DNA of 64,000 nucleotides from a virus (lineage: Duplodnaviria; Caudoviricetes): IMG/VR virus record IMGVR_UViG_3300020036_001974, positions 9,506-73,505 of that record, one strand, 5' to 3'. Each line of letters opens with the position of its first letter. The stretch's first letter is position 1. This document shows positions 32,575-57,177 of the stretch, piece by piece. A program made the translations under genes and the position numbers. The notes under the pieces are model-generated. The model had not been told where the DNA came from. It saw nothing but the letters and a program-made list of their open reading frames with translations, and made no database searches.

Positions 32575-32589
32575 TGGCACGATTTTTGT
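32575..32589 (+). promoter_or_regulatory. Sigma54-type promoter
   Basis: TGGCAC-GATTT-TTGT, upstream of HNH ATG 32627. Confidence 0.65.
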
Positions 32590-32626
32590 GGGCTTATCAC
32601 GCACACAAGTAAAAACCCACTAAACA

Positions 32627-33406
32627 ATGAATATTAACGAATTACTAAAACAAAAGACTGTATTAGAACTATCTTTAAAAGACTTAAGATATAAAATAAA
32701 CAATTATTATAGTCAAAGACCTTTAATAGAGCATGAAAGTATTAAAGGATACTATTTAATTCATCGAACAGGTGTTCATTATATAAGCAAAGATGCCGTT
32801 ATAATAAATAAGAAAGGGGCTGTTATAAAACAAACTCACCAAAAGGATTACTGGGTTGTGCCTTTAAAGGGTACTGGTTTAAGGGTTCATAGGTTAATAG
32901 CAGAGATATTCATTCCTAACCCAGATAATAAACCATTTGTCAATCATATAAACGGTAATAGATCTGATAATAGGGTAGAAAACTTAGAATGGGTAACTCA
33001 ATCAGAAAACTTAATTCATGCATTTTATGTACTTGGTAGAAAAGGTAAGCCGTTAAAGAGGGCAGATGACGGGCGCACCCTTGAGGAAATAATGAATGAA
33101 GAAGGATTAACCTATCATCAAGCAAGTTATAAATACTTTACTAAAAGACCTCGTTTTGGTGGTAAACATGGTGACATTATTAAAAATATAATGAAACAAG
33201 AGGGTGTTGGTTACAATATTGCTTATAGAAAAGCCGTAAAAATGAATTTAATAGAACCTCCTAATAGCTCCTTTCTTAAGAAAACACAGGCCCAACATAA
33301 TGGAATTATTAAACAGATAATGGATGAAACAGGATTTACTTATAACAGGGCTTATAGAAAGGCTAAAAGAGAGGGGTTAATATCTCCCAAAACCAGAGTT
33401 AAATAG
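32627..33406 (+). CDS. HNH homing endonuclease with three C-terminal repeats
   Basis: VHRLIAEIFIPNP...VNHINGNRSDNRVENLEW. Confidence 0.9.
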   Translation: MNINELLKQKTVLELSLKDLRYKINNYYSQRPLIEHESIKGYYLIHRTGVHYISKDAVIINKKGAVIKQTHQKDYWVVPLKGTGLRVHRLIAEIFIPNPDNKPFVNHINGNRSDNRVENLEWVTQSENLIHAFYVLGRKGKPLKRADDGRTLEEIMNEEGLTYHQASYKYFTKRPRFGGKHGDIIKNIMKQEGVGYNIAYRKAVKMNLIEPPNSSFLKKTQAQHNGIIKQIMDETGFTYNRAYRKAKREGLISPKTRVK

Positions 33407-33763
33407 GACAAGAGTTGAGGATTGCTTGCAAGCGGTCGTCCTTAACAAGGATCTGGAGCTGGAGAAACTAATGTATCAGATTCTTAAGGTACAATAGGCT
33501 GTATAAGCTCTATATAAGCTATTAGAGCAACGCAGGAATCCAACCACTCCAGATAGGTCTAATAGTACAAACCTCTTATAAAGGCAATTATAAAGCTAAT
33601 TTATACCCTATAAATGATCCCAAAAGAGTTCATCTTGTCCTAATACACTAAAGCGTGATAGCGATAAATACCTACATTATAGATACGTAATAGAAGAAAA
33701 TGAATTACTATACTAACTTCTTTAGCAATCGCTTAACCACATACTAATATAGATAGTATTTAG

Positions 33764-33787
33764 TAATAACTAAAAGTTTAGTTATTA
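33764..33787. repeat. Perfect 11 bp inverted repeat in a long AT-rich intergenic region
   Basis: TAATAACTAAA-AG-TTTAGTTATTA. Confidence 0.8.
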
Positions 33788-34087
33788 ACCTATTTATACT
33801 CCCTTTTTTAAGGTAATTAAGGGGTTTTTATCCCAATTTGGGACAATTATTCCCATTCTGGGACAAACACAGGGAGTAAAAAAGTAATATTTCACCTAAA
33901 ACCTTACATCATGCCAAAACCAAAAAGGCCCAAAATGAAGGAATTTACCGGCAAAACACAAATAATCTTACATGGAATGGGTGAAAATTAGGAAATTCCA
34001 AAAATCGGTTATTACTTTGGGGCAACAAATCGGGAATAAGTCCCACCACCATATGGGGTTCCCGATAAAAACCAAATTTATAGTATT

Positions 34088-34753
34088 ATGAAAAATGTAA
34101 GTTTAAAGAGTGAGCAGAAGGTATTATTAACCGTTGTAGGTCTAATAATAGCCTATTTTGTAGGTCAGAATTTATTGACATTGTTTCAATACCTTATCAG
34201 TTTTAGGCAAGATGAGGTAATTGGGTTTTTAAGCCTTGCAAGCGTTTTACCTGTTTTAAAGGTCAAAGCGTTAAAGTATCCTATTTCCTTAATTGACCAT
34301 ACAACTAAAAGTGGTCGCAATCGTAAAGGTGTTATTTTGGGTACTGAAAATGGCCGTTTGGATCGTGAATTATGGTATTTAGCTTTACATAGCGATTTTA
34401 AGGCTACTTCATTATTCGACTCTCAAGGCTATTCAGTTGAGAACAAAAAGCCTGTTTACCTTGTAAAGCCTGAATATTGCAACGGTAAAACCGATTCTCA
34501 AATTATCGAATCGGTGCAATCATTCCTTAATACGGGATTGACTAAAGATAATAGAGAATTGATAGCTGCAAAGATAGCTGCAAAGGACGCTGAAAAGGAA
34601 AGCCAGAAGGCTGCAAAGACAGCTAACAAGGTAACTAAAGGTAAGGGAAACAGTATTACTGAATTGGTTGCAAAATTGGATATAGCACTTGATAGAGGGC
34701 TTATCACCGCTGAAGAGCACAAGGTGAAGTTAACCGCTGCATTAGGTATCTAA
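34088..34753 (+). CDS. Membrane-anchored protein with C-terminal SHOCT-like helix
   Basis: N-terminal TM segment; ELVAKLDIALDRGLITAEEHKVKL. Confidence 0.6.
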   Translation: MKNVSLKSEQKVLLTVVGLIIAYFVGQNLLTLFQYLISFRQDEVIGFLSLASVLPVLKVKALKYPISLIDHTTKSGRNRKGVILGTENGRLDRELWYLALHSDFKATSLFDSQGYSVENKKPVYLVKPEYCNGKTDSQIIESVQSFLNTGLTKDNRELIAAKIAAKDAEKESQKAAKTANKVTKGKGNSITELVAKLDIALDRGLITAEEHKVKLTAALGI

Positions 34754-34773
34754 TCAGGTAAGTAAGTAAAAGG

Positions 34774-34802
34774 AAAGGACGCCTAAACAGCGTCCTTTTT
34801 TT
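34774..34802 (+). terminator. Intrinsic terminator
   Basis: AAAGGACGC-loop-GCGTCCTTT plus T run. Confidence 0.85.
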
Positions 34803-34847
34803 ATGTCTATACTTTTGGCACCCTATTTTTAATTAGTCTAAATAATT

Positions 34848-34874
34848 AACCCGCCTAATTTAGCGGGTTTTTTT
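34848..34874 (+). terminator. Second intrinsic terminator
   Basis: AACCCGC-loop-GCGGGTT plus T run. Confidence 0.8.
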
Positions 34875-35023
34875 ATTGCCTTATATAAGATAGTTGTTTA
34901 TGCGATTATTCAAATTGACCCCCACCCTCTTTGAATGACCCCCCGGCAGTCAGACGAAATTGCATACAGGGCCGCATGTGTAGTTTAAAGGTTAATAGAT
35001 AGAGATATTATAAGAAAAAAGGG

Positions 35024-35212
35024 TTAATTAATAAGACTATAAAGTAAAACCCCCCATAAAAGACTTAAAAACGCAATTAAGAACCCTATTAAAAACTGTC
35101 TACGACCATATTCCTTTAACATCATTAGTATGTATCCTTGGTATTCTATTGGTATCTTCTTACCATGTTTTAACCAGCATAGATTTAAGTATCTGTTCAT
35201 TATGTCTCTCAT
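35024..35212 (-). CDS. Small membrane protein
   Basis: C-terminal TM segment FLIGFLIAFLSLLWGVLLY. Confidence 0.5.
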   Translation of the reverse strand: MRDIMNRYLNLCWLKHGKKIPIEYQGYILMMLKEYGRRQFLIGFLIAFLSLLWGVLLYSLIN

Positions 35213-35289
35213 GTCCTTAGTGTTTATTGTACCCCTTCGGGTATAAAAGTAGTAGTATTGTATATGTTTATACCTTATAGGGTATAGTC

Positions 35290-35511
35290 TTACTGTTTAT
35301 GGCAAGATGAACCACTCGGTTTTTCAAGGTAGGTAAGGTAGGCTCTAAAGAAAGCAGGAGTATGGAAAAACCCACCTAATGTATTATGTAGACCAAAACA
35401 AAAGAACCCGTTACTATGTACCTTTCCTTTCTTATAAGAATTGGATATTTCCTGACTCCACCAATCTTTACCGAGACTCTCTATCTCATATCCACATCTG
35501 CTGCATTTCAT
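35290..35511 (-). CDS. Zn-finger-like FxxYL-tagged protein (FRAYLTYL)
   Basis: CSRCG...H...C...H, tag. Confidence 0.65.
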   Translation of the reverse strand: MKCSRCGYEIESLGKDWWSQEISNSYKKGKVHSNGFFCFGLHNTLGGFFHTPAFFRAYLTYLEKPSGSSCHKQ

Positions 35512-35723
35512 TTCTTAAAGGTTATAAGGTAATCTTCTTTCTTAAGAGGGCAGTCTTCTGGAGTACTATACCCGGGTTCTTCAAACCCCATATAAGTACC
35601 TAAAACATTGCCGGTAAGGTTACATTTATCGCAAGAATCCTCACCTATTGCCCAATCATCATATTCACTTACCATAAAAGGGCAGTTTCCACACCCAATA
35701 ACTTCAGTTTTAACTGTTTTCAT
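35508..35723 (-). CDS. Cys-rich hypothetical protein
   Basis: CGNCPF...C..C...CPL. Confidence 0.6.
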   Translation of the reverse strand: MKTVKTEVIGCGNCPFMVSEYDDWAIGEDSCDKCNLTGNVLGTYMGFEEPGYSTPEDCPLKKEDYLITFKK

Positions 35724-35850
35724 ATAAAATAAGCGATTATTTGAGGCAATAGGAAAATAATAAATAAATAGGTTAGAATGTGGTACCAGATAAGGGTTTT
35801 AGTCACTCTACCTTCAATAAGGTACATAAGTCCTAGTATAGGTATGTATT

Positions 35851-36021
35851 TCATAGTAATTTTAAATAATTGGTAAAATTAATAGGTTTCAAGTCTTTTG
35901 TATAGCAGATATTTACATTCCCATCTGTAAACTTTATACGTGATACCAGACCTTCTTTACTCATTGCTTCAATATCACATACCCTACCCATACGGCTTAA
36001 TACTCTATCGCCTATCTTCAT
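35851..36021 (-). CDS. FxxYL-tagged small protein, 56 aa, not in ORF track (FTNYLKLL)
   Basis: Hand translation MKIGDRVL...KPINFTNYLKLL*. Confidence 0.7.
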   Translation of the reverse strand: MKIGDRVLSRMGRVCDIEAMSKEGLVSRIKFTDGNVNICYTKDLKPINFTNYLKLL

Positions 36022-36033
36022 AACTTCCTTAAA

Positions 36034-36456
36034 TCATGATAATATCCTGTCTAATCCAAAATAGATCCCTAAACACCATCCTAAGATGATAATCCTAATC
36101 CCGATAAGGGTTAGTTTGGAGAATTTCTTAAGTACCTTATCTGTTGAAGAACTCTCACCCAGATAGAACGGATCTCTTTTAAAGAAAGTTCCAAAGGTTA
36201 TATCAAAGAACATTACAAATAGTCCAAAACAAGCTATCAGGCTCTGAAGTAAGTGAACCGGGAAGATGAATTCATTTGGGAAAATCATTACATTTACAAG
36301 GCTCGCCAGAAGAAAAGCAGGAGCACGTAGTGTCCATATGTCCTTCTTGTGGTTGTCCCAGACCCCGTTCTTGGAGTCCTTTAGGTCCAAAACTGCTTCC
36401 AGTATCCAAGGGGTTGATAGTAGTAGGAGTTGTAGGGTTATCAGTAGTGTTTCCAT
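36034..36456 (-). CDS. Multi-pass membrane protein
   Basis: About four hydrophobic segments. Confidence 0.65.
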   Translation of the reverse strand: METLLITLQLLLLSTPWILEAVLDLKDSKNGVWDNHKKDIWTLRAPAFLLASLVNVMIFPNEFIFPVHLLQSLIACFGLFVMFFDITFGTFFKRDPFYLGESSSTDKVLKKFSKLTLIGIRIIILGWCLGIYFGLDRILS

Positions 36457-36522
36457 GTTTTAATTTATATAAGTCGCAAATATGAAGGGTTTTAAATAAC
36501 TCCTTGAACTTCTCATTAGCTG

Positions 36523-36861
36523 TCATTTCTTCTTGGATTCTTTATAACAGTTATAGATCTGACCTACTATCCACCCGGTAAGGTAAGCCTCCGGCTCATC
36601 GTTACTAAGGTCGTGCTTAATCCCTGAGTGACTGTATACCATATTTTTGATATGGATTGCTTCATGGGCGATAGTGTCTATCTCCAGACCCCGGGTGTCG
36701 AACACTACTGCAATAATACTACCGTTGGCAGCAATATTTTGCCCTATGAGGTGTGGCTGCCATAACCCCACAAAGCCGCGCTGCTCAAATCCTGCGCTCA
36801 CGCCACACTCGCCAACCCTTCGCAAAATACAGCCGTTGCCGACACACATTACCGTTTTCAA
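36523..36861 (-). CDS. HExxH metallopeptidase-like protein
   Basis: IAHEAIH...EPEAY. Confidence 0.6.
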   Translation of the reverse strand: MKTVMCVGNGCILRRVGECGVSAGFEQRGFVGLWQPHLIGQNIAANGSIIAVVFDTRGLEIDTIAHEAIHIKNMVYSHSGIKHDLSNDEPEAYLTGWIVGQIYNCYKESKKK

Positions 36862-38337: not shown

Positions 38338-39024
38338 TTATTTATGTAAAATTGTTATGTTTCCTTTTTGAATATCCTTGAAAGTACAACTTTTATTTGT
38401 CAGATGGTCGATGACCTCGTTGGCCTTTTGATTGTATGTCCTCCTCTTGTTTCCTCTGAAAGTATCACCAATCTGGTCTTTTCTGATCTTAGAATAGGTA
38501 TCGTCATAATTACTCTTGTGTTGTTCTTTAATCCTCTGTTTCATGATCTTATATGCCTGCTCTATGTTGGCCTCCTTTGATCTACCCTCAACCTTAACAG
38601 TAACATGTGCCTTTATGTGGGTCATCATGACTGAGCATTGTTTTCTGTTACGATGCTGACCACCGGCTCCTGTGCCACTGAAAAATCTGATAGTAACATC
38701 TTCAGACTTAACATCCACTTGTATATCCTGTAAAGGATCAAGTACAGCTACGCTTACTGTGGAGGTTTGAGTTCGTCCTCTCTTTTCAGTAGGAGGAACC
38801 CTTTGCCATCTATGGCCGCCTATTTCATTAGCAAAGATTTTCTTGACGTCCATCCCTTGTATTCATAACTTAACAAAACCCGGACGGTTCTCCATTGATT
38901 CTATAGTAATGTTATTCTTGTAACAGAATCTTGAGTAGACATCTGCCATGTCCTGACACAGGAGTTTTGCATCTTGTCCTCCCTCCATGTCTCTAATTTC
39001 GATAATAATTGTTTCTTGCTTCAT
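38338..39024 (-). CDS. RF1-like peptide chain release factor homolog (no domain 1) with in-frame UGA at 38863-38865
   Basis: IIEIRDMEGGQDAKL N-part; GGHRWQRVPPTE (PxT), GAGGQHRN (GGQ), RRTYN...DH; ATGA-coupled start at 39024. Confidence 0.8.
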
Positions 39025-42021: not shown

Positions 42022-42163
42022 CTAAATAGTTATTAAAATTAATAGGATAATGAAAAGCAGGATAGTGTATATCTTTACAATAAGGGTTTGAATCTTTATC
42101 AAGATACAAACCTATTACTTTAGTTTTAACCAGTTCTACCTTGCAATATTTACATTTATACAT
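41984..42163 (-). CDS. Zn-finger-like FxxYL-tagged protein, 59 aa, not in ORF track (FNNYLDAL)
   Basis: Hand translation MYKCKYCK...PYCKDIHYPAFHYPINFNNYLDALPDRTGKVGI*. Confidence 0.65.
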   Translation of the reverse strand: MYKCKYCKVELVKTKVIGLYLDKDSNPYCKDIHYPAFHYPINFNNYLDALPDRTGKVGI

Positions 42164-42523
42164 TAATTCTTGGTAAGGACATGGGTGATGGTTTCTTGCT
42201 CAATCCCGCCACAACCCACCTATTCACCATTCCTTGTATTCGTTAATTCCTGTATTATAATTGCTTTAGTAGGAGAATGAGAAAGTAAATTAATCCGTGA
42301 AAAATGGTTATAGCTATCGCTACCATTTATCACTTCCTCATTCTTCGATTTCTTGCTTTGAGCTATCGAAAGAGTTTCCCTTGGAATTAATACACTCAAG
42401 GTATTGGAGTCAACTTTACTGCTGTGTATTCAGCACACTAGTCTTACGGTTCTCTCCTTTGTACCACCGCTGCGCTTGCTAGTTCCCCTGATAGCGCAAT
42501 AAAATACACTCGTCATCCGTCTT

Positions 42524-42940
42524 TTAATCCCGCCCAAGTGTAAGTCTCTTAATAGAACCCCTCGGCTCTATCAACATCCCCTCTATCTCCTTTTTTAAAT
42601 CACTTTTAGACATTAAGTTCACTTTTTCATTAGTGATCCTCAATAATCTCATTCTTCTAGTTTTTGTAAGATAAGACTCTCTTATTCTATCTTTTTTTAT
42701 TTGATTCTCATCTTCGTGGTATTTTCCATCAATTTCAATACACAGGAAGTAAGGCTTCGGTAAATAAAAATCAACAATCGAGAACCTATCTGTCAAAAAC
42801 GCTTTTTGAAATACAAACCTATATTTTAAATCCTCCAATAATCCAAATATAATATCTTCGGATTCTGTGCTATTTTCAATAAGATAGTTCTTCTTTCTAA
42901 TCAAAGAACCACCGTGTAGTTTGATATAACTTTCTTTCAT
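42524..42940 (-). CDS. DUF559/Vsr-like endonuclease
   Basis: TESE...FQ...IVDFY...IEIDGKYH...D..R...L...LRITN. Confidence 0.85.
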   Translation of the reverse strand: MKESYIKLHGGSLIRKKNYLIENSTESEDIIFGLLEDLKYRFVFQKAFLTDRFSIVDFYLPKPYFLCIEIDGKYHEDENQIKKDRIRESYLTKTRRMRLLRITNEKVNLMSKSDLKKEIEGMLIEPRGSIKRLTLGRD

Positions 42941-43126
42941 TTATGATCTAAAAACCATTCTCTGGTAAAGTTACGAGGCCCCCAGAGGTCCAGTTCTTTA
43001 ATTCTATCTTTTCCTAGAATCCTATTAAGCTCAACAAAAGTCATGCCAACTTTATAATTAGGACGAAATGTCTTAATTACGTAGCTTACTTCATAAGAAT
43101 TTAAAGGTTCCATTTTACTTATTTAG

Positions 43127-43196
43127 TAGCGGACCCCGGAATCGAACCGGCCCTTGAGGGATATGAACCCTTAATGCACCATTACACCTTTCCGCG
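43127..43196 (-). tRNA. tRNA-Met(CAT), initiator-like, with several mismatches
   Basis: CGCGG 5' end, GGG/CCC anticodon stem, loop TTCATAT, T loop TTCGATT; followed by CTA, not CCA. Confidence 0.7.
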
Positions 43197-43202
43197 ATAT
43201 AG

Positions 43203-43274
43203 AGCGTTCGGAGGGATTCTAACCCCCTTCTTCCATATTACAAGTATGGGCTTCAACAGCAAAGCTTCAAACGC
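43203..43274 (-). tRNA. tRNA-Thr(TGT), atypical D and T loops
   Basis: GCGTTTG/CGAACGC acceptor, CCATA-CTTGTAA-TATGG anticodon arm, T loop TTAGAAT; followed by CTA. Confidence 0.7.
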
Positions 43275-43372: not shown

Positions 43373-43387
43373 ACAAAAACCGTGCCA
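43373..43387 (-). promoter_or_regulatory. Sigma54-type promoter upstream of the tRNAs
   Basis: TGGCAC-GGTTT-TTGT on - strand. Confidence 0.65.
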
Positions 43388-43658: not shown

Positions 43659-43674
43659 TGGCATGGTTTTTGCT
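43659..43674 (+). promoter_or_regulatory. Sigma54-type promoter
   Basis: TGGCAT-GGTTT-TTGCT before the sigma-like gene. Confidence 0.7.
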
Positions 43675-44190
43675 GTAGGTATGAATATGAACGCTATTAT
43701 GTATAAAAAGGCCCAGTCCTACGCATATAAGTGTCGTCCTGATGAATATAAAGATTTAGTTCACGATGCTTGGGTAGTTTGGTGGGATAAAAAAGGAGAA
43801 GACCTGTTTGATCAGGATGAGAGACTTGTAATGAGAGTACTTAAGTATATTGTGCTTAGTAGATCTCAGAAAGATTATTTTGTTCAGAATGGAGAAAAGC
43901 GTCATAAGTTATTCATAAACGTTGAAAAACTAACCTGTACATCTTATGATAGTGAATTTAATACAAAAGCACTTAAGGCTTTACAAAACTCACCGCTTAT
44001 TACCGAAACAACACCTGAAAGGATTCTCATTGACAAGGATGAGATGGAGGTAGTACGCAAGAGGCTTACCGAAAAGCAGAAGACTGTATTTGATTTATTA
44101 ACAGAAGGATTGTCCAGAAAGCAAATAGATATGAGCCAACAGCTTTGTAGCTATTATATTTCCCAGATAAGAAAGAAAAGATTTAACTAA
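43663..44190 (+). CDS. ECF/sigma70-family sigma-factor-like protein (true start probably 43687 or 43699)
   Basis: Region 2-like YKDLVHDAWVVWW; region 4-like TPERIL...LTEKQKTVFDLLTEGLSRKQI. Confidence 0.65.
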   Translation: MVFAVGMNMNAIMYKKAQSYAYKCRPDEYKDLVHDAWVVWWDKKGEDLFDQDERLVMRVLKYIVLSRSQKDYFVQNGEKRHKLFINVEKLTCTSYDSEFNTKALKALQNSPLITETTPERILIDKDEMEVVRKRLTEKQKTVFDLLTEGLSRKQIDMSQQLCSYYISQIRKKRFN

Positions 44191-44484: not shown

Positions 44485-44799
44485 ATGAACAACTTTAATG
44501 ATTACATAGCTGAGATTAGAGCCTCTGAGAGACTCAAGAAAACTCTTGAATTGTTTAAGAAAGGTAATTTAACAATTGAAGAAGCTATTGAATTCATAGC
44601 CTCAGACGTCCAGTTCCATAAAAAAGAAATTCAAGAGAGTTCTTTTTCAGGATATTCTTATATACCAACATGGATTGGTGGAACAGGATCTGGAATTACA
44701 TATACATCAGACCCCCTAACAGGTAATCCATATTTAGTAAGCGGAACAACAACTACAACAAGTGTCAGCCTATCAGGACCCGATAATAGTACCACATAA
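44485..44799 (+). CDS. Hypothetical protein
   Basis: 104 aa ORF upstream of the terminase. Confidence 0.45.
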   Translation: MNNFNDYIAEIRASERLKKTLELFKKGNLTIEEAIEFIASDVQFHKKEIQESSFSGYSYIPTWIGGTGSGITYTSDPLTGNPYLVSGTTTTTSVSLSGPDNSTT

Positions 44800-47647
44800 C
44801 GAATATGACCCGGTATTAGAAGATAAAGTAAAATACTATCTTACACTAACACCGGATCTTCCTAAAAATGATAAAAGGATTATTAGGGCTAAAGCCCCTG
44901 AAGGAGCTACGCCTTATGAGTTAGAAATCTGGCAGCGTGAAGAGGTTCGTAGAATAAGAGAAGGCCATTTTGGGATGTCTCCTAAGATGTACTTCTTTTA
45001 TAACTATGTTAAGATGTGGGATATTGAATCCGGGTTAATTCGCCCTGAGTACCGGGTCTGCCAACAAGCATGGTTCTCATTAATCGAGGAATGTCAGGCT
45101 TCGAGAGAATGGGGTGTTATTTGCGTAAAGCGTAGACGGGTAGGAGCTTCTTGGTTAGAAGCATCTGATGTAATGCATGATTGTATTATAAACCCCATGT
45201 TCAAAGTAGGTATGACTTCTAAAACAGAAGCCGATGCTATTGAATTATTTAAGAAGGTTAAATTCGTATACGACAATCTCCCGGATTGGTTACGACCTAC
45301 ATCTTCTGCCGGTAACACAAGATCCTCTATTGATTTTTCATACTTTATAAAAGATTCTACAGGCTCGAGACGCAGATTAGGACTTCAGTCTGAAATCATT
45401 GTAAAAGCCCCAACAGACACATCTTGGGAAGGTTTTGCATTACGTAAATTAGTCATTGATGAGTGTTTTGGTCGAGGTACTTTGGTTAGAATGTTCAACG
45501 GCAATATTAAACCCATTGAAGATATAAAAATAGGAGATAAGGTAATTGGTTTAAAAGGAAAACCAAGAACAGTAGAGTGTACAACATCTGGTATTTCTGA
45601 TTTATATAGAATAACCCCAAACAAAGGAGAACCGTTTGTTTGTAATGGTGCTCATTTATTGACAGTAACATTCAACGGAACCTCTAAAGTATTAAATATT
45701 AAAACAAGTGAGTTCTTTAAATTAAAAAAGAAAAGAATAAGAGGTTACCAGTTAATGAGATCTGGTTGGGAATATAAAAGAAAACCCCTCTCAATAGACC
45801 CTTATTGGTTAGGATGTTGGCTTGGAGACGGATCATCTAGTTCACCTTCTATTTGTGCAGCAGACCCGGAACTTAAAGAATATTTAGAAAAAGAAGCACC
45901 GTCTGTTCTGAATTGTAAAGTAACTCCTAATAAAAGAGCAGATGGTATTGTTACATATTATTATGGTAATAACTACAGCAGAGATCATGGAGGTATTAGA
46001 AATAGATTAAAGCGTATAAAAGTATATAATAACAAACATATTCCTCTTAGATATTTAAAATCTAATAGATTAGATAGACTTAGACTATTGGCAGGAATAA
46101 TTGATACAGATGGTCATAAGGCTAAAAATAAAGAACAATATGAAGTAACATTTAAAATAAAAAGACTATCAGAGGAATTAAAAGAATTATGTATTAGTCT
46201 TGGATTCTATGCATCTTTAAATAAAAAGATAGCAACAATGAAACGAGAAGATGGTAGTATTTATAAATGTGAGGTATACAGGGTTCATATATACGGTAGT
46301 AATTTATCAGATATACCGTGTAAAGTAAAAAGAAAACAATCAAATGGATCTCCTAAAGTAAAAGGAAGAAAGACTCCTGAAAAGACAGGTTTTAAAATTG
46401 AAAAAATAGAGGATGGTGAATATTTCGGGATTAGATTAAAAGAAGATCCTTATTTTCTATTGCACGATGGTACGATTGTACATAATTGTGGTAAAATATC
46501 CAATTTAAAGTCAATGTTCTCAATGGCCAACGAAGTAATGAGGGTTGGGCACCGGAGATCAGGTATTCCTTTGTTATTCGGAACCGCAGGTGAGGTTTCT
46601 AAAGAAGGAAAGGACCTCAAGGAAATGTGGTATAATGCTGAGATTTATAAATTGAAGCAATTCTTTTATGGAGGCTGGAATGGAATCATAGTAGACCAGT
46701 TTGGTAATGACCTTAAAGAAGAAGCAATACGCTGGATTGTATACGAACGTAAGCGCAGGGAGGGATTATCTCAAAAAGAATACAACGACTTTCTACAACA
46801 GTATCCATTAACGGTACAAGAGGCGTTTACATCTAATGAAAACCAAGGATTAGGTAATCAGGTTAAAATTAGCAAACAACTTCAATCTCTGTACGAAAAC
46901 CCTGTTAAAGAAAAGAAGGGTTACTTTAAATTAGATAAAGATGAAAACGTAGTTTTCCATCCAGACAACAGAGGAGCTTGTATAATTTATGAAGATCCTG
47001 ACCCTTCTTTAAAGAATACCTACTGTGCAAGCGCAGATCCAACTGATCACGAGGTAACAGACACAAGTGGATTATCATCTCTGTCAATGTTTATTATGAA
47101 GAAGTCAAATGGCATACAACCGCCTAAGATTGTATTTCAGTATACAGACAGACCTAACATTCCCCGTGACTTCTATGAACAAGCACTAATGGCATTGTTA
47201 TACTATAATAAGTGTAAGATTTTAATAGAGAGGAATAAATCAGGTATGATTACCTATTTCGATGAAAGAGGATATAAGTATCTACTCCAAACCACCCCAC
47301 AAGGAATGACAAGGTTAATAGGAGGTAATACTTTTAACATAGGATATTATAGAACGAAGGCAAGTAAACAATACGGAGAAGAGCTTGTGTGCGAATATAT
47401 AGAGGATTACTGTGAGTATATACCGTGTAAGGAATTACTGAAAGAGTTGCAAAGCTATGGTGTTATAAATACAGATAGGGTAGACGCCCTTCAAGCAGGT
47501 TTAATGTTTTTAAGGGAAGATAAAACCAAATCAATTGCCTCCTCACTGGTTAAAGAAAAAACCCCTAACTTTGGATTAAGTAGAATAGGTGGAAGACTCG
47601 TTCGTAATAAGCACGATAGTAACGGACAAAAGATTTACCATATTTAG
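44762..47647 (+). CDS. terL: Terminase large subunit containing an intein
   Basis: KRRRVGAS Walker A region, LVIDE Walker B split by intein, nuclease ADP..., IERN, DRVDA. Confidence 0.92.
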   Translation: MSAYQDPIIVPHNEYDPVLEDKVKYYLTLTPDLPKNDKRIIRAKAPEGATPYELEIWQREEVRRIREGHFGMSPKMYFFYNYVKMWDIESGLIRPEYRVCQQAWFSLIEECQASREWGVICVKRRRVGASWLEASDVMHDCIINPMFKVGMTSKTEADAIELFKKVKFVYDNLPDWLRPTSSAGNTRSSIDFSYFIKDSTGSRRRLGLQSEIIVKAPTDTSWEGFALRKLVIDECFGRGTLVRMFNGNIKPIEDIKIGDKVIGLKGKPRTVECTTSGISDLYRITPNKGEPFVCNGAHLLTVTFNGTSKVLNIKTSEFFKLKKKRIRGYQLMRSGWEYKRKPLSIDPYWLGCWLGDGSSSSPSICAADPELKEYLEKEAPSVLNCKVTPNKRADGIVTYYYGNNYSRDHGGIRNRLKRIKVYNNKHIPLRYLKSNRLDRLRLLAGIIDTDGHKAKNKEQYEVTFKIKRLSEELKELCISLGFYASLNKKIATMKREDGSIYKCEVYRVHIYGSNLSDIPCKVKRKQSNGSPKVKGRKTPEKTGFKIEKIEDGEYFGIRLKEDPYFLLHDGTIVHNCGKISNLKSMFSMANEVMRVGHRRSGIPLLFGTAGEVSKEGKDLKEMWYNAEIYKLKQFFYGGWNGIIVDQFGNDLKEEAIRWIVYERKRREGLSQKEYNDFLQQYPLTVQEAFTSNENQGLGNQVKISKQLQSLYENPVKEKKGYFKLDKDENVVFHPDNRGACIIYEDPDPSLKNTYCASADPTDHEVTDTSGLSSLSMFIMKKSNGIQPPKIVFQYTDRPNIPRDFYEQALMALLYYNKCKILIERNKSGMITYFDERGYKYLLQTTPQGMTRLIGGNTFNIGYYRTKASKQYGEELVCEYIEDYCEYIPCKELLKELQSYGVINTDRVDALQAGLMFLREDKTKSIASSLVKEKTPNFGLSRIGGRLVRNKHDSNGQKIYHI
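45464..46486 (+). mobile_element. Intein with LAGLIDADG endonuclease in TerL Walker B (341 aa)
   Basis: CFGRGT...IVHN followed by Cys; WLGCWLGDG and LLAGIIDTDG. Confidence 0.92.
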
Positions 47648-47651
47648 ATTC

Positions 47652-47667
47652 TGGCACGGTTTTTGCT
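47652..47667 (+). promoter_or_regulatory. Sigma54-type promoter upstream of portal
   Basis: TGGCAC-GGTTT-TTGCT. Confidence 0.75.
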
Positions 47668-47732: not shown

Positions 47733-49949
47733 ATGAGTCAATTCCCTTCTATCTATGTTTCTGAGAAGTCAAAGAACGAAGACTATCATAGAGAATTTGT
47801 AACTGCTATTTGTAAGCGGTCTCTTAATTCTAATTACGCCCTGCAACAGTCCATTACAGATAGTTGCTATAACTTCTATAATGGAACCCAAGGTAGTGCC
47901 AGTTTTGAGTACCTCCAGAAAGCAGAAGACGGATCTTCCTTACCTGCTCAATGGATGACTTTGAACAAAATCCGTTCCAAAGTTAACCTTTTGATAGGAG
48001 AGTTGATGGAGAAGGGGTACGACTTTAGGGTATCTGCAATCAATAAAGAGGCAAAATCCCGCAAACTTCAGGAAAAAGAGAAGATGAGAGTTGATGTAAG
48101 ACTCCAGCCAATCTTCCAAGAACTAGAGCAAACCACCTCAATGCCCTCTCCAATGGGCCAAAATCTACCAGAAACCGAGGAAGAGGTAGACGAGTTCTTT
48201 GACAAGAACTACAAAGAAATATCCGAAATAGTTCTTTATTATGCAATTAAATATATCGACAAGAAAACGATGTGGAATTCTGAGAGAACTTCCCTCTTCA
48301 GAGATATTCTTATTGCCGGTAAAGCATTTGCCAAGACTGAAATAGTAAACGGAATCCCGAGAGTACGTAGGATTGATCCACGATACGTGGTCTACGATAC
48401 TTACGCAGAAAATGACTACTTGACCGATTCAACCTACTTTGGTGAAGTTAGATATATGAATGCAGCCGATGCTGCTGTTAAGTATAACGTATCTGTTGAG
48501 GATCTTAAGAAATCAGCCCAAAGTTATCAGGATTACATAAAATACATGCAGAAGTCATCTCAGGAGAGAATGTCTCAATTGGACATTAATTTCCCGAGCT
48601 TAGGTGGTAGTAATCTAAACTGGTTTGAGCAGACTCCTTCTGGTCTCAGAGTTCTTGTAATGGACGCTTATTGGGTAGATTACAAGGTTATAAAGAACAA
48701 GGTTTCCGAGGATAACTACGGAAATGAACATATTAAAGAAATATCAGACTCAGCCCGGGATAAAGAAAATGTTATCTCTAAAATGGTTAAAGTCTGGAGA
48801 AAGGCCACTTTGATAGGTGGAGACACTATTACCGATTGGGGTCTGGTTAAAAACCAACCAAGAGATGTAGACAACCTTTCTGAAACATACCCTCCTTTCT
48901 GTGCCCTAATCCCACACTTTGTAAATGGCCGCTCTGTAAGCATTGTAGAGCAGCTACAGTCGCTTCAAAACATGAAGGACATTATCACCTACAACATAAG
49001 CCTCTCTATGGCCAGAGCAGGTGCAAAGGGCTTTGTATACGATGTATCTCAGTGCCCTGATACTTGGGAGCCTGAAGATGTAATTCGTTATCTTAAAACC
49101 GTAGGTATTGCGTTTATAGATTCCCGGGCTGGTGGTGTACCGGCACAGTTTAATCAATTCCAACAGATTGACCTTTCCTTATCTGATTCAGTTCGTCAGT
49201 ATCTTGAACTAACAAGATGGGTAGATATGGAGATGGATCAGATTTCAGGCATTAGTGAAGCCCGTCAGGGTATCATGCAAGGAGCCAGTCAGTTAGCAAG
49301 TGTAACCCAGTCAGCCCTAATACAGTCCTCCTTAACAACAGCCTCTTACTTTAAAATGTTTGAGCAGTTCTCTACAAACATTTGGAACCAAATTGCTAAG
49401 TTAACTAAGATAGCTTGGGCTGGTAAAGAGAGATTTGCTCCTATTATAGGGGATGCCGGTGTTAATTTCTTAGAACAGGATATTGAACTTGATCTTAATG
49501 ATTACGCAGTATTTGTAGAATCTACCCCTAAGCTGCTTGACGATCTGAATTCATTCCAACAAATGATCATGGCTGGTCTTCAGTCTGGAGACTTGAGATT
49601 TGGAGATGCTATGAAGCTATTGATGGAAAAAGATGTAGTTTCTGGTATTCTTAAATACGAGAAATTAACAGCTAAGAGAGAGAAAGAGCAAGCGGCTCAG
49701 GAGCAGCAGATGATGATGCAGCAGGAACAGATGAAGATGCAGGCTCAACAGCAAATGGCCCAATTCAATGCTCAGACTTCTCAGACAGCAAATGAAAAAG
49801 CACTTCAGGTTCAGCAACTTAAAAACCAAGGAGCACTTCAACAGAAGGCACTTGACTCCAGAACTAAACTAAGAAGTGAACAGATAAAAGGCGTAACTCA
49901 GTTAGCCACAACTAAGGAACAATCTAAAAACAAGAAACCAAATGAGTAA
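47733..49949 (+). CDS. Portal protein
   Basis: 738 aa after TerL; YNFYNG, NKIRSKVNLLIGE, Gln-rich coiled-coil C-terminus. Confidence 0.85.
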   Translation: MSQFPSIYVSEKSKNEDYHREFVTAICKRSLNSNYALQQSITDSCYNFYNGTQGSASFEYLQKAEDGSSLPAQWMTLNKIRSKVNLLIGELMEKGYDFRVSAINKEAKSRKLQEKEKMRVDVRLQPIFQELEQTTSMPSPMGQNLPETEEEVDEFFDKNYKEISEIVLYYAIKYIDKKTMWNSERTSLFRDILIAGKAFAKTEIVNGIPRVRRIDPRYVVYDTYAENDYLTDSTYFGEVRYMNAADAAVKYNVSVEDLKKSAQSYQDYIKYMQKSSQERMSQLDINFPSLGGSNLNWFEQTPSGLRVLVMDAYWVDYKVIKNKVSEDNYGNEHIKEISDSARDKENVISKMVKVWRKATLIGGDTITDWGLVKNQPRDVDNLSETYPPFCALIPHFVNGRSVSIVEQLQSLQNMKDIITYNISLSMARAGAKGFVYDVSQCPDTWEPEDVIRYLKTVGIAFIDSRAGGVPAQFNQFQQIDLSLSDSVRQYLELTRWVDMEMDQISGISEARQGIMQGASQLASVTQSALIQSSLTTASYFKMFEQFSTNIWNQIAKLTKIAWAGKERFAPIIGDAGVNFLEQDIELDLNDYAVFVESTPKLLDDLNSFQQMIMAGLQSGDLRFGDAMKLLMEKDVVSGILKYEKLTAKREKEQAAQEQQMMMQQEQMKMQAQQQMAQFNAQTSQTANEKALQVQQLKNQGALQQKALDSRTKLRSEQIKGVTQLATTKEQSKNKKPNE

Positions 49950-52564: not shown

Positions 52565-53740
52565 ATGGCTGGTTTCTCAAGCAATGATCAAATAATTCAA
52601 GCATTAAGTAACGGGCAAACATGGAACGCTCCATTTGGAAAAAACATGCAACCAACAACGGTGTGTGTAGCGAACGAATGGCACATGCTTGCCAGAGGTG
52701 CAGGTAATCCGGGTTCAGATGCTCTATTTGACACAGGTGCTAACTTAACATTTATTCCTGTAGAAGATGATACCGCATCTGCCGGAACTCTTCAACATGG
52801 AGGAGATGTGCAGCCTACATACTATAAATATCTATTATCAGGACATGCTGTAACAGCAGCAGCAACTATGGCACCCGGAACACTTGCTGTATTAGACGTT
52901 ATAGGTTATTATAGAGTAACAACTGTAACCACAGCAACCGCTCAGGCAACAACTAATACAATATCAACACGTACTGCAACATTTACAGCAGATGCAGGTA
53001 CAGACATTTGCACACATACTTCTACAACTTCTATTCCTAGTAATATATTAACCGGAACAAGAGTAAGATGTACTACTACAACAACTCTTCCTGCCGGATT
53101 AGCAACAGCAACGGATTACTACTTTATCAAAGTAAGCGATACAACTTATAAACTTGCTACTTCTTATGCTAATGCTATAGCAGGAACAGCTATTAACATT
53201 ACAGACGCTGGTACAGGTACACATACTCTTAACTGGTTGTTACCACGTTACACAAATGGAGCAGGTGTAAACGCTGTTATTTTTAATCCATCGGCTACTC
53301 CATTAGGAGCAGCTACTCCTAACATGAGTTTAGGTTATACTAACTCAGCACAAACTACTACAAGAGCAACTCCTACAGTTCTACCTATTGGTAAAACAGC
53401 CTGTCCGAACTCACAGATTATATACACAGGAGCAACTGGTACTGGTAAATACAATTATATGATGCCATTGCAAGCAGGGGATGCGGGTATAGCTGAAATA
53501 AATACTATACAAAACTCTATAAGTTATGTATCAGGAACTTACACTGTGGCATTAGTAAAAGAACTTGCAAGATTTCCATTATCGACATTGGGTTTAGCAA
53601 GTGAACGTAATTTCTTGTTTGAATACCCCTCAATGCCGAGAATTTACGATGGAGCGGCTTTATACTTTGCTTGGGGCAGTGGAGCAGCAACTCCTGTATC
53701 AAGTGCTGTTTCAGGGCAACTCAATTTTATATGGTCATAA
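52565..53740 (+). CDS. Structural protein, paralog of the previous gene with an insert
   Basis: LPRYTNGAGV, GYTNSAQ, LQAGDAGI. Confidence 0.65.
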   Translation: MAGFSSNDQIIQALSNGQTWNAPFGKNMQPTTVCVANEWHMLARGAGNPGSDALFDTGANLTFIPVEDDTASAGTLQHGGDVQPTYYKYLLSGHAVTAAATMAPGTLAVLDVIGYYRVTTVTTATAQATTNTISTRTATFTADAGTDICTHTSTTSIPSNILTGTRVRCTTTTTLPAGLATATDYYFIKVSDTTYKLATSYANAIAGTAINITDAGTGTHTLNWLLPRYTNGAGVNAVIFNPSATPLGAATPNMSLGYTNSAQTTTRATPTVLPIGKTACPNSQIIYTGATGTGKYNYMMPLQAGDAGIAEINTIQNSISYVSGTYTVALVKELARFPLSTLGLASERNFLFEYPSMPRIYDGAALYFAWGSGAATPVSSAVSGQLNFIWS

Positions 53741-53784
53741 TATATAGTAAAACAAAAGGGTTGTCTTTTCAATATATCTGATAA

Positions 53785-54639
53785 ATGCTTATAGCCAACT
53801 ACTCTTATATTAATCAAATTTGTGGACACAATCACTCAGGTGTCACAAATCCTATATGGATAATCTCTCCACATAGAATGAGGGGGTATTATGGTAAATC
53901 TCAGTATGAGGATATACAGGAACAAATAAAAAGGGACAGCTTTCCAACAGGAACTAATATCCACTACTCATTGATAATGGGAGACAAAGGTGGACTTTTA
54001 AGCGCAACAACAACTTTAAATGGAGGTAGTGGATTAACTCTTGGTTCCTTAGCTTTGGGTAAAGACTTATCTACAACGATCTCAGGAACAGGCGAATTAG
54101 CAGATTCAAGTCTTTCACTGATAACAAGTATGGCGGCTGCTATAACAGCATTAGGTGTTATATCTGGAGCTTCACTTGTTGGATCGGTTTCATTAGCATG
54201 TTCTATTACATCATCCGGGGACATCTCTGGATCCTTAGGTCTTATTTCAAGTATGGTTAGTGCTCTTATTGGTAGTGGAGATATAACCAGTAACCTGAGA
54301 GGTACCTCAAGTCTCGAAGCTGATATATTTGTTAATCAATCTGAAGCCACTACACAAGAACTAGCAGCAGCAGTATGGAATGCTCTAACTTCTGATTTTA
54401 ACGCATCAGGAACGATGGGAGAGGCTATGGCAGCCGCAGGTAGTGCAGGAGACCCTTGGATTACCAACTTACCCGGGGCATATGGCTCAGGAAGTGCAGG
54501 GCATATATTAGGAAATCTTTTAAGTAATATACCTGATTCAGTATGGGATGAGATTATAGCAAATCATACTACAGCCGGTACAATGGGTAAGAAACTTAAA
54601 GATAGTTTAAAGACAGGAGACTTTATCGCACTAAAATAA
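53785..54639 (+). CDS. Gly/Ser/Ala-rich structural protein
   Basis: AAAVWNAL and DSVWDEII..HTTAGTMG repeats. Confidence 0.6.
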   Translation: MLIANYSYINQICGHNHSGVTNPIWIISPHRMRGYYGKSQYEDIQEQIKRDSFPTGTNIHYSLIMGDKGGLLSATTTLNGGSGLTLGSLALGKDLSTTISGTGELADSSLSLITSMAAAITALGVISGASLVGSVSLACSITSSGDISGSLGLISSMVSALIGSGDITSNLRGTSSLEADIFVNQSEATTQELAAAVWNALTSDFNASGTMGEAMAAAGSAGDPWITNLPGAYGSGSAGHILGNLLSNIPDSVWDEIIANHTTAGTMGKKLKDSLKTGDFIALK

Positions 54640-54698
54640 TAAAAATATGAAAAAGAAAGGTAAGAAAAAGTGCTAACAAATACCATACCAGTAATTTC

Positions 54699-54714
54699 TG
54701 GCACGGTTTTTGCT
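54699..54714 (+). promoter_or_regulatory. Sigma54-type promoter upstream of scaffold/MCP
   Basis: TGGCAC-GGTTT-TTGCT; 25 nt identical to the portal site. Confidence 0.75.
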
Positions 54715-54755
54715 GTAAGAATAAAAGTGTTATTTTAGCTAAATTTTAAAGATTT

Positions 54756-55787
54756 ATGGTAGAAACAAAAGATCCATTGGCTTCATTTATTGAGGCTCAA
54801 GAGGCAGTTGAAAAAAATAGTCCACCAGTCGAGGTAGTCAACAAAGTTGAAACCCCGTCTGAGGTTCAAAAACCAGAAGTAACTCCAGAGGTAAAGCCTG
54901 TGGAAACCAAGGTCGAAATTCCTAAAAAGGAGGAACTTACAGATGATGGATTAATAGATTTAGAAATTCCAGAACCAACGGTAGAGAAACCAGCAGAGTT
55001 CGACTTCTCATCCCTTGTCAAAGACTTAGGGTTTGAAGTTAAAACTAAAGAGGAATTAATATCCAAGGTAAAGGAAGCAGTAACAAAACAATCGGAAGAC
55101 CCCTTTAAAGGGTTGCCCGATAACCTACGAAAGGCGGTTGAGTTTGCAAAGCAGGGAGGCGACTTCTTGCAAATGCTAAAAGTTAGTCAAGTAGATTATT
55201 CTCAGATTGACCCGAGTGTCATTTATGAGAACCATATCTACAGCAGCATCTCCGATAAGGAAAAGGCTAAAGAGTATCTTGAAAGTTTATCTCCCCTTGC
55301 TAAGGAGATAGAAGGTCAGAAGCTGAAGACACAGTACATTCAATGGCAGGAAAGCCAAGAACGTGCAATGAAATCAGAACTCGAAGCTAAAGCCTCTGAG
55401 GAACTGAAAAGAAAGGCCGATAATGAACAAAGAATGCGTGAGACAATCAACAAAGTTGAAGACATCAGCGGATTCAAAGTTAAACCAAGCCAGAAAGAGA
55501 AGTTCTATAAAGATGTTGTTGAGGGGAACTTATCAAAAAAGTTGTTCTTTGACGAGAAGGGAAATTATGATTATAACAAGATGTTTAAGGTAGCTTTCAT
55601 TGCTGAAAACTTTGACGCCATCCAAAAGCATTACAAGGGTAGAATTCAAACAGCTACTAAAAGAGAGATCATAGAACCTTTGACTAATGCAGAATTGCAA
55701 ATCAACTCTGAAAAGCCGGTAACAAATAGTGGTGAAGTTGATCCACTTACCGCTTGGATGAATGCCTCGCGTGGTATAAAGACATAA
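54756..55787 (+). CDS. Capsid scaffolding protein
   Basis: Acidic Pro/Glu-rich N-terminus, coiled coil, directly upstream of MCP. Confidence 0.65.
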   Translation: MVETKDPLASFIEAQEAVEKNSPPVEVVNKVETPSEVQKPEVTPEVKPVETKVEIPKKEELTDDGLIDLEIPEPTVEKPAEFDFSSLVKDLGFEVKTKEELISKVKEAVTKQSEDPFKGLPDNLRKAVEFAKQGGDFLQMLKVSQVDYSQIDPSVIYENHIYSSISDKEKAKEYLESLSPLAKEIEGQKLKTQYIQWQESQERAMKSELEAKASEELKRKADNEQRMRETINKVEDISGFKVKPSQKEKFYKDVVEGNLSKKLFFDEKGNYDYNKMFKVAFIAENFDAIQKHYKGRIQTATKREIIEPLTNAELQINSEKPVTNSGEVDPLTAWMNASRGIKT

Positions 55788-55805
55788 ACTAAACAATAAA
55801 AACAA

Positions 55806-57158
55806 ATGCCAACAGCAGGTATTGGGTACCCCTCAGGTGCCCTCACATCAGGTAACTCAGCAAGATCCTCTATATTAGATGGTTATATCTTTGCATCTGG
55901 TATCAATAAACCAGAACATTCAGCATTTCTAACTGAAAAGTTTGGAAGTGTATACACAATGACTTCGTTGCTCGATAAATTAGGAGCAGCAAAACCAGTA
56001 TATGCAAAAGCATATTCTTGGTCAATTTTAGATCGTACTCGTAGTAATGCTACCATTTCAAGTGGTGACGGTACAGGTGCGACAGTAACCTTAACACTTG
56101 ACGTTGCCGCTGACACATCCAATCTTGGATATTTCTTGGTAGATGATGTGTTGAGAACAGAAACAGGTACAATTGTTAAAGTAACAGCAGTAGGTACAGG
56201 TGGTGGTTTTCAAACTATCACTGTAGCTCGTGTTGATGGTACTAACATTGTAGCCGCTGACTTTGCAGATGGAGAGAAGATCGGTCACCTTTCTACAGCG
56301 TTTGATGAAGGTTCAACTGGCCCTAACGGTCGTTTGTTCCTGCCTTCAGAAGACTATAACTACACACAAATCTTCCGTAGAGCGGTTAAGGTTTCCCGTG
56401 GTGCAGCTTCTTCTAAGTCTTACATCAGCGTAGGTGGAAAAGAGTACTGGTATTTTACCAACGAACAGAAAATGTTCGATGAATTCTTCGCAGATCAGGA
56501 GCGTTCTTTGATGTTCGGTACCCGTACCACATCAGGTAACAAAACCACTTCAGGTGGTATTTATGACAAAGTAGTAACTCAGGCATTGGGTCAGGTAGTT
56601 AACTTTACCACAGCCACAGGTATTACTGAGTCGGATTTCTTCACACTGATCCCTCGCTTGATCCGTCAGGGTTGCTCTAAGAATCTATTGTTGCTTGCAG
56701 GTAGCGAAGCCGCTTCTGATATTCAACAGGCTCTTAGAACTTACACTCTGAATGGTGGAGTAAACTTCGGATCTTTCGGTTCCAATAAAGTTGGTATCGA
56801 CATCCCGGGTTATAGCTTCATGGGTGTGAATATCGCCTTCCAACATTATCCAATGTTCGATGATGAGAAGACTCTTCCTTTTACTTCTACTTCTACTTCA
56901 ACTAAGGTTAACTTCCGTCAGGCAGCCCTTGTGTTGGATTTGGGTGAAGGAGCAGGTGAGCCTAACATCTCTAAGGTTTATCGTGATGGTGATATGGGCG
57001 ATGCTCGTATGATCAAAACTTTGATCCCGGGTATGATTGGTCAGTCTGGTGGAGTTAGCTCTAACAGCTTCGATGGTTGGGAATCACAAGTTCTCGCTGA
57101 ATTAGGATGGAAGGTAAATAACGCCCACAGATCAGGAGCGTTCATCCCGAACGCTTAA
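55806..57158 (+). CDS. Major capsid protein (HK97 fold, with insertion)
   Basis: 450 aa; YNYTQIFRRAVKVSR, E...MFG, TSGG patterns; synteny. Confidence 0.85.
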   Translation: MPTAGIGYPSGALTSGNSARSSILDGYIFASGINKPEHSAFLTEKFGSVYTMTSLLDKLGAAKPVYAKAYSWSILDRTRSNATISSGDGTGATVTLTLDVAADTSNLGYFLVDDVLRTETGTIVKVTAVGTGGGFQTITVARVDGTNIVAADFADGEKIGHLSTAFDEGSTGPNGRLFLPSEDYNYTQIFRRAVKVSRGAASSKSYISVGGKEYWYFTNEQKMFDEFFADQERSLMFGTRTTSGNKTTSGGIYDKVVTQALGQVVNFTTATGITESDFFTLIPRLIRQGCSKNLLLLAGSEAASDIQQALRTYTLNGGVNFGSFGSNKVGIDIPGYSFMGVNIAFQHYPMFDDEKTLPFTSTSTSTKVNFRQAALVLDLGEGAGEPNISKVYRDGDMGDARMIKTLIPGMIGQSGGVSSNSFDGWESQVLAELGWKVNNAHRSGAFIPNA

Positions 57159-57161
57159 CTT

Positions 57162-57177
57162 TGGCACGATTTTTGCT
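57162..57177 (+). promoter_or_regulatory. Sigma54-type promoter upstream of the second HNH gene
   Basis: TGGCAC-GATTT-TTGCT. Confidence 0.7.

Follow-up and report, generated by a model that had tools for sequence, protein, structure and literature searches.

The DNA considered here is a 64-kb window (bases 9506-73505) of a 73.5-kb uncultured viral contig, IMG/VR record IMGVR_UViG_3300020036_001974, in which short boxes resembling the -24/-12 promoters that sigma-54 (RpoN), an alternative sigma factor, recognizes precede genes for virion proteins, HNH homing-endonuclease genes and a tRNA unit (Table 1; positions are those of the window unless stated otherwise). The pattern TGGCAY-N5-TTGY matches nine times in this window against an expectation of 0.34, and none of 100 shuffles gave nine matches. 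Six of the sites (32575+, 43373-, 43659+, 47652+, 54699+ and 57162+) had been listed in a first-pass annotation made from the sequence alone, and their positions, strands and exact N5 spacing proved correct; one more perfect copy, the seventh, is found beyond the left edge of the window, at genome position 5164 (window position -4341, about 4.3 kb to the left), 35 nt before a gene of the tail region. The seven strong copies share the sequence TGGCA(C/T)G(G/A)TTTTTG(C/T), lie between genes or at gene ends, and point toward the next gene; their GG and G(C) doublets are exactly 10 bp apart in all seven, followed through to TTGC in five and TTGT in two. A k-mer scan of the upstream regions of the genome returned TGGCACG as the sole standout, with five of its seven genome copies upstream, and no second motif.

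As the first-pass annotation had stated, the plus-strand sites lie shortly before a start codon (30 to 66 nt from motif end to ATG at the four sites with distances in Table 1), and the portal and scaffold sites are identical over exactly 25 nt, consisting of TTC, the motif and TGTAAGA. The box at 43659 ends 7, 13 or 25 nt before the candidate starts of the sigma-like gene (43681, 43687 and 43699), and an mRNA started from it would have no leader or only a very short one; in the closest relative (L008), 12 nt separate the end of the box from the homologous gene's ATG. Downstream of the sigma-like gene follow small open reading frames (ORFs) and then the terminase gene. The HNH gene behind the box at 32575 is inserted on the plus strand beside the start of a minus-strand operon that runs left from 32445. 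The minus-strand box at 43373, for which the closest relative has a divergent minus-strand copy at the same place, possibly also heads, by run-on, the leftward operon of nuclease and DNA-metabolism genes. The feature behind it had been described as a tRNA cluster, of which one tRNA-Thr stands firm and the second member is a marginal tRNA-Met-like sequence. The remaining three matches, 3870+, 21626- (inside an ORF) and 43034- (inside a 58-aa ORF), are weaker than the strong seven and may be internal promoters or chance occurrences; the sequence variant at 3870 recurs before scaffold genes in two relatives, L033 and L035.

Table 1. Sigma-54-type boxes and associated features, in window coordinates.
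Feature	Position	Strand	Remarks
Weaker candidate box TGGCACAATAATTGT	3870..3884	+	Between 1311-aa gene and next gene; abuts annotated ATG; 20.4 bits
Sigma-54-type box TGGCACGATTTTTGT	32575..32589	+	37 nt before HNH gene 32627-33406; 22.9 bits
HNH homing-endonuclease gene	32627..33406	+	PF13392 HNH_3, E = 3.6e-12; phrog_59
tRNA-Met-like sequence	43126-43196	-	Marginal; Rfam 22 bits, below gathering score; ARAGORN only at relaxed threshold
tRNA-Thr	43202-43274	-	Firm; ARAGORN and Rfam
Sigma-54-type box TGGCACGGTTTTTGT	43373..43387	-	Heads structured leader and tRNAs, leftward; 23.4 bits
Sigma-54-type box TGGCATGGTTTTTGC	43659..43673	+	Before sigma-like gene
Predicted ECF-like sigma gene, 167 aa	43687..44190	+	Sigma-2-like N-terminus; sigma-4 / LuxR-type helix-turn-helix
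Terminase large subunit gene with intein	44762..47647	+	Hint and LAGLIDADG; ends 4 nt before predicted portal promoter
Sigma-54-type box TGGCACGGTTTTTGC	47652..47666	+	66 nt before portal gene 47733-49949
Sigma-54-type box	54699..54713	+	42 nt before scaffold-like gene 54756-55787, then major capsid gene 55806-57158
Sigma-54-type box TGGCACGATTTTTGC	57162..57176	+	3 nt past capsid stop, 30 nt before HNH gene 57207-57983; 25.1 bits
RNA structure	57168..57217	+	Promoter spacer and 11-bp hairpin pair with HNH start-codon region
Likely terminator hairpin	58723..58738		GC-rich, T-runs on both strands; ends unit of HNH gene and 235-aa gene

Relatives of this genome were collected via the portal protein; they comprise a viral contig (L001, 46% portal identity), two assemblies (L008, 71%; L009, 57%) and 45 metagenome loci, and family site counts refer to about 48 related loci plus this genome, with sites accepted when the GG and the G were present and at least 8 of 10 consensus letters matched. 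Across the family, the motif occurs at a density of 1.9 per kb between genes vs. 0.37 per kb within genes (about five-fold); 60 of the 62 intergenic copies face a gene on the same strand, at a median of 42 nt before the ATG, and in many relatives a box stands directly before the portal gene, or directly after it and before the scaffold gene, in places equivalent to those of the boxes at 47652 and 54699. At the place of the box at 57162, the closest relative has neither the HNH gene nor a box. When a matrix built from the relatives only was applied to this genome, the seven strong sites ranked first with 22-25 bits, the box at 57162 being the top hit; shuffled genomes yielded about two hits above 12 bits.

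Weaker copies, with 12-20 bits in the relatives-only matrix, are found in sense orientation inside tightly packed minus-strand operons. Those of 14-20 bits at 15936, 21625, 25501, 28900 and 43033, all on the minus strand, lie within genes in the sense direction, mostly shortly before the next start, and are possible internal promoters for replication and middle genes. Family-wide, 12 of the 21 sense-strand coding hits with measurable distance are no more than 122 nt from the next start; since many of the sense coding hits are so close, some internal promoters are likely. These boxes had been described as drivers of a late program, but the set is not purely late, as the leftward unit of tRNA and non-coding RNA (ncRNA) and the weaker copies in the minus-strand operons indicate.

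This distribution bears on the view that the boxes are not promoters at all, but binding sites for a regulator or for a protein of packaging or replication, or else decoys that titrate host sigma-54. Such a role could accommodate an inverted copy of the -24 half upstream of one site and a palindrome that adjoins the box in a sub-lineage; yet the box is asymmetric, its intergenic copies face genes almost without exception at promoter-like distances, it marks the start of each gene block, each HNH gene has its own copy, and the read-through hairpin at one of these genes, described below, is sensible only if RNA begins inside it, all of which leaves a non-promoter role very improbable. The inverted half-site (ACCATACCAG ... 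CTGGCACGGT) lies just upstream of the predicted scaffold promoter, at 54682-54707; it reaches 17 bits as a minus-strand box and scores as a hairpin too. The palindrome TGACA-N4-TGTCA overlies the predicted start, 4-11 nt past the -12 box, at L001:3993-4035 and 6678-6725, L016:7777-7815, L020:6693-6730 and L049:902-940; five of its 11 copies in 463 kb of family DNA sit beside a box, and the palindrome is absent from this genome. It looks like an operator for a dimeric regulator.

In an alignment of 59 unique family sites, all information is concentrated in one 15-bp block, T-GGCAC-GR-TTTTTG-Y, within which the positions not forced by the site filter (C4, A5, C6, G7, T9, T12 and T13) are conserved too; no position 16-45 nt downstream exceeds 0.6 bit, and no second box appears at the spacing of sigma-70 or extracytoplasmic function (ECF) sigma factors. 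The compact block fits the -24/-12 geometry of sigma-54, and not the 16-18-bp spacing between the -35 and -10 elements of sigma-70 or ECF promoters. Matches to sigma-70-type promoters between 42000 and 60000 were not enriched (57 vs. 56.2 in shuffles). The TAnnTTTG promoter of the primary sigma factor of Bacteroidota was considered and rejected; only 4 of its 89 copies are intergenic, which is the chance level, and the box has GG or GA where the TA belongs. Early promoters were not identified by the sigma-70-type, TAnnTTTG or k-mer scans.

Sequences identical to the phage boxes occur in cellular genomes. The exact 16-mer TGGCACGGTTTTTGCT is found in bacteria of many phyla, including Prevotella, Muribaculaceae, Paenibacillus, Treponema and Planctomycetota; of 121 occurrences, 76 lie between genes, and the 16-mer usually faces the next gene. 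In the same bacterial loci, 15 GAFTGA proteins are encoded. In Flavobacterium psychrophilum, sigma-54 (SM4) promoters with mapped starts precede groES-groEL, lon, dnaK, grpE-dnaJ, htpG, clpB, skp, remFG-sprCDBF and panD (PMC9723704); the G of the -12 box is followed by A at groES, lon and clpB, and by T at remF and others (PMC9723704 and its supplement). The phage-family matrix gives these promoters 5.8-21.8 bits, whereas a score of 8 bits is attained by about one random 17-mer in 10,000. The flavobacterial and phage elements share the -24/-12 architecture and its spacing, a spacer rich in T, and frequent replacement of the -12 C by T or A, as illustrated by remF (TTGGCACGATTTTAGT) and a phage box (CTGGCACGATTTTTGT). 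They differ in context; the flavobacterial promoters serve chromosomal stress and motility genes and are accompanied by three bacterial enhancer-binding proteins (bEBPs) of the host, whereas the phage boxes are near-identical to each other, lie before virion genes, and have no recognizable enhancer.

The boxes are best interpreted, with moderate confidence and on comparative grounds, as sigma-54-type -24/-12 promoters that would be read by the host sigma-54 holoenzyme and fired by a host activator or by an unrecognized phage factor. The first-pass reading of the motif as the RpoN consensus is well supported by comparison, since the boxes keep syntenic positions and their orientation, concentrate their information in a compact block, are identical to cellular sigma-54 promoters and show the -12 variants of the mapped promoters of Flavobacterium. 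The holoenzyme would bind the GG around -25/-24 and the TTG(C/T) around -14 to -12, and transcription would start approximately 12-13 nt downstream of the box, giving leaders of about 15-55 nt and none for the sigma-like gene. Seven units would be headed in this way: the ECF-like sigma gene through to the terminase, the portal block, scaffold and capsid, the tail block, the two HNH genes, and the leftward tRNA/ncRNA unit.

The ORF at 43687-44190 is, to judge from structure and profile comparisons, a divergent ECF-like sigma factor. Its N-terminal 60 aa align to many ECF sigma-2 structures (though only at Z 3.5-5.2; mean predicted local distance difference test score of the model, 69), its look-alikes in the ESM Atlas carry Sigma70_r2 or r4, and the family profile retrieves the sigma-H structure 3mzy (E = 1.8e-9) and SigH (0.002). 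Among 60 relatives, Sigma70_r4_2 is found in 13, the full-length model Sigma70_ECF in 8, and GerE in 23; the sigma-4 helix-turn-helix is present according to the family profile, the window protein alone matches GerE only (E = 0.03), and a Foldseek search of its model against the PDB gave no significant match.

This credible, if divergent, sigma factor could itself read the boxes together with the host core polymerase, in which case they would be phage-specific promoters, their likeness to sigma-54 promoters would be convergent, and the box before the sigma gene would provide positive feedback. The gene lies behind a box at the head of the rightward virion region both here and in L008, and the four loci in which the sigma gene was found (G000, L008, L013 and L027) have the most consensus-like boxes. 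Recognition by this protein nevertheless appears rather unlikely; an ECF factor needs -35 and -10 elements about 16-17 bp apart, and here a single block of 15 bp, interrupted by a gap of 5 bp, holds all the information and is followed by no conserved position downstream; it matches the sigma-54 consensus at 11-12 specified positions with exact spacing. The cellular 16-mer, gene-facing and intergenic across so many phyla, is also difficult to reconcile with a phage-private reader, as is the presence of an identical 18-mer in phages that have no such sigma gene.

These latter phages, L004 (1-12147), L005 and L007, are complete 12-kb phi29-like genomes among the IMG/VR contigs of metagenome 3300045988; they carry Phi29_MCP, the connector, the gp16 ATPase and a protein-primed PolB, and have perfect terminal inverted repeats of 170-214 bp, a GC content of 36-37%, and almost no Shine-Dalgarno sites. 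The exact 18-mer TGGCACGGTTTTTGCTGT is found in each terminal inverted repeat of the three genomes, about 60-100 nt from the end and reading inward. No homolog of the ECF-like sigma factor was detected in these three genomes, so that the reader of the box there must be a host factor.

Several observations weigh against recognition by host sigma-54. The C of the -12 element, expected from the proteobacterial consensus, is replaced in most of the 59 family sites (T in 32, C in 19, A in 7). Cellular sigma-54 promoters vary far more among themselves than do the boxes of a single genome, four copies of which are identical at 18 of 18 nt, and such uniformity is typical of phage-specific promoters. 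In phages, a private sigma factor is usually accompanied by private promoters, and here an ECF-like sigma gene lies directly behind one box. In the 220 nt upstream of the seven sites no shared enhancer-like element was found, and shared 8-mers were not above random controls; the missing enhancer proves little, since some bEBPs act without DNA binding. Finally, the presence of rpoN in the host of this phage is assumed.

A sigma-54-type promoter directly before an ECF-type sigma gene has a cellular parallel in the HrpR/HrpS - sigma-54 - HrpL cascade of Pseudomonas syringae, where a sigma-54 promoter controls an ECF sigma gene (PMC3105312). If host sigma-54 reads the phage box, both systems would be two-step cascades; unlike in the Hrp system, the phage virion genes themselves also carry sigma-54-type boxes.

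When the two ends of the contig (window 62101-64000; genome 1-1625) are joined, they form, in frame, a single tail-fiber-like ORF of 1175 aa, and many relatives measure 72-80 kb; for these reasons the genome is probably complete and the 73.5-kb record circularly permuted, despite a completeness estimate of 51%. A Shine-Dalgarno-like 4-mer is present at just 16 of 121 genes, and in the upstream regions A is abundant and G scarce. Both traits are typical of Bacteroidota, and the host is probably a member of this phylum. The phage is distantly related to crAss-like phages; its portal is of the P22 type, its major capsid protein of the SU10/crAss type, and its terminase bears an intein. Encoded in the minus-strand block are a DnaB helicase, likewise with an intein, a primase resembling DnaG, and a protein whose exonuclease domain is PolB-type. 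Portal matches in a phage collection were all distant (23-27% identity for the best-ranked) and were to crAss-like, Bacteroides, Flavobacterium and Cellulophaga phages; no match in this collection was obtained by megablast of 15 kb or by tblastn of the capsid and sigma-like proteins. A crAss-type virion RNA polymerase was considered and rejected for the proteins of 1279, 1311 and 1719 aa, which have no PHROG hit and no DxDGD motif; this outcome gives no firm indication of their function.

Closed complexes of sigma-54 need an ATP-driven AAA+ activator, and sigma-54 promoters remain silent until such an ATPase fires them. The first-pass annotation had noted that no activator or RpoN homolog is visible in the window, and this holds for the whole 73.5-kb contig, in which PF00158, PF04552 and PF04963 gave no hit. 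A regular-expression search for a GAFTGA-like loop, a check that the annotation had proposed, found none in the whole genome and none in 536 kb of family DNA. Its suggestion of a phage activator encoded elsewhere is unlikely in the form of a canonical bEBP, since the contig looks complete without one and the family DNA is likewise devoid of GAFTGA. The only recognized AAA+ ATPase besides the DnaB helicase, a 381-aa protein at 28153-29298 whose family is widespread, was examined as a bEBP candidate and rejected, as it has neither PF00158 nor GAFTGA and its homologs carry the MoxR-type domains PF07728, PF07726 and PF20030. Together with a vWA / DUF2201 metallopeptidase-like partner, this MoxR-type ATPase occupies 26898-29298 on the minus strand; its Walker A (PGTWKS) and Walker B (FEELNR) motifs are altered.

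The absence of a bEBP, of GAFTGA and of RpoN domains, the lack of a common upstream enhancer, and the frequent replacement of the -12 C would also be expected if the boxes were sigma-54 sites that work without a classical AAA+ activator, either because a small phage protein remodels sigma-54 or because T or A at -12 loosens the closed complex to the point of unassisted initiation. Non-consensus -12 regions are said to raise unregulated sigma-54 transcription, and the genome encodes dozens of small proteins of unknown function that might supply a remodeling factor. Initiation of this kind is doubtful all the same; flavobacterial promoters with the same -12 variants are treated as activator-dependent (PMC9723704), no candidate protein was identified, and an enhancer is dispensable for those bEBPs that do not bind DNA.

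Under the reading as activator-dependent sigma-54 promoters, a host enhancer-binding protein would fire the phage boxes, or else an unrecognized phage factor would take its place. F. psychrophilum has one sigma-54 and three bEBPs, and its sigma-54 promoters are treated by the authors as dependent on an activator (PMC9723704). From this set of chaperone and protease genes and its three bEBPs, we infer a host bEBP as the activator, possibly one of a stress regulon; a candidate would be the bEBP that governs the host's regulon of chaperones and protein quality control. This regulon depends on sigma-54 in flavobacteria, and the mass production of virion proteins would induce it. Taken further, and tentatively, a family of approximately 72-80-kb phages, probably of Bacteroidota, may time its virion genes via host sigma-54 without a classical activator of its own, with either a host stress-regulon bEBP as the "late" signal or a new non-AAA+ activator, and with a separate role for the ECF-like sigma factor; this scenario is plausible rather than probable.

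If this is true, the timing of capsid, portal and tail synthesis would be handed to a host signaling protein, or the phage would possess its own way of unlocking sigma-54. The flavobacterial sigma-54 regulon holds chaperones that are needed for phage head assembly, which suggests a coupling between proteotoxic stress and virion production. As genetic parts, the promoters would offer compact elements with tight off/on control for Bacteroidota.

The use of sigma-54 had been called unusual for phages, and it is indeed rare, yet a precedent exists in the Pseudomonas aeruginosa phage YuA. Strict dependence on host sigma-54 was reported for this phage (Ceyssens et al., 2008, J Bacteriol 190:1429, as cited in PMC5053324 and PMC10914365), and a sigma-54-like promoter was confirmed by promoter trap and cappable-seq (PMC5053324, PMC10914365). 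Like the present phage as interpreted here, YuA is a virulent phage reported to rely on host sigma-54, with no phage bEBP reported; unlike it, YuA is a siphovirus of a proteobacterium, and cappable-seq yielded one sigma-54-like promoter beside sigma-70-like and phage-specific motifs (PMC5053324, PMC10914365). The present phage has seven strong copies heading virion-gene units, and these are conserved across a metagenomic family. To judge from the literature searched, use of host sigma-54 is documented so far in one phage only, YuA. A literature search on sigma-54 promoters in crAss-like and other phages returned only the YuA line and a 2026 preprint on the bEBP-like T4-type protein Htm; with most subscription journals outside the search, no report was found of sigma-54 promoters before virion genes or in Bacteroidota phages. 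Here the trait is conserved across a large uncultured family, and it is also present in unrelated phi29-like phages.

An indirect hint at the start site comes from the HNH gene at 57207. The RNA of 57165-57225 is predicted to fold with -28.3 kcal/mol (z = -7.4), burying the start codon, whereas a transcript starting from 57188, the predicted start, shows no structure (-0.2 kcal/mol); only RNA that reads through from the capsid gene can adopt the fold. The prediction is therefore of poor translation for read-through RNA and of a translatable message when the gene uses its own promoter, and such a hairpin would make sense only if transcription begins inside the structure. Control by a promoter-dependent mRNA structure over the start codon is familiar from homing-endonuclease and late genes of the T4 type (I-TevI, e and soc). 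In those genes, as in the model proposed here, read-through RNA covers the start codon, while a transcript initiated at the late promoter of the gene itself is missing the 5' arm and can be translated; in contrast to T4, the promoter here is sigma-54-like and not a gp55 late promoter, and the structure occurs at one of the two HNH genes, no such fold having been found at the HNH gene at 32627.

Other features of the genome concern neither the boxes nor their reader. Inteins with Hint and LAGLIDADG domains interrupt the terminase (44762-47647) and the DnaB helicase (17108-19126); together with the HNH genes at 32627 and 57207 and a DUF559 endonuclease-like gene at 42524-42940, they make this a genome rich in selfish nucleases. 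A short release-factor-like gene on the minus strand (38338-38853) encodes an RF-1 domain (E = 3e-17) and the end of a PCRF domain. Three stretches of 270-680 nt without ORFs (33407-34087, 34754-35023 and 42022-42523) contain GGGA/TCCC-type repeats and hairpins, and could represent an origin, non-coding RNAs or intron-like sequences.

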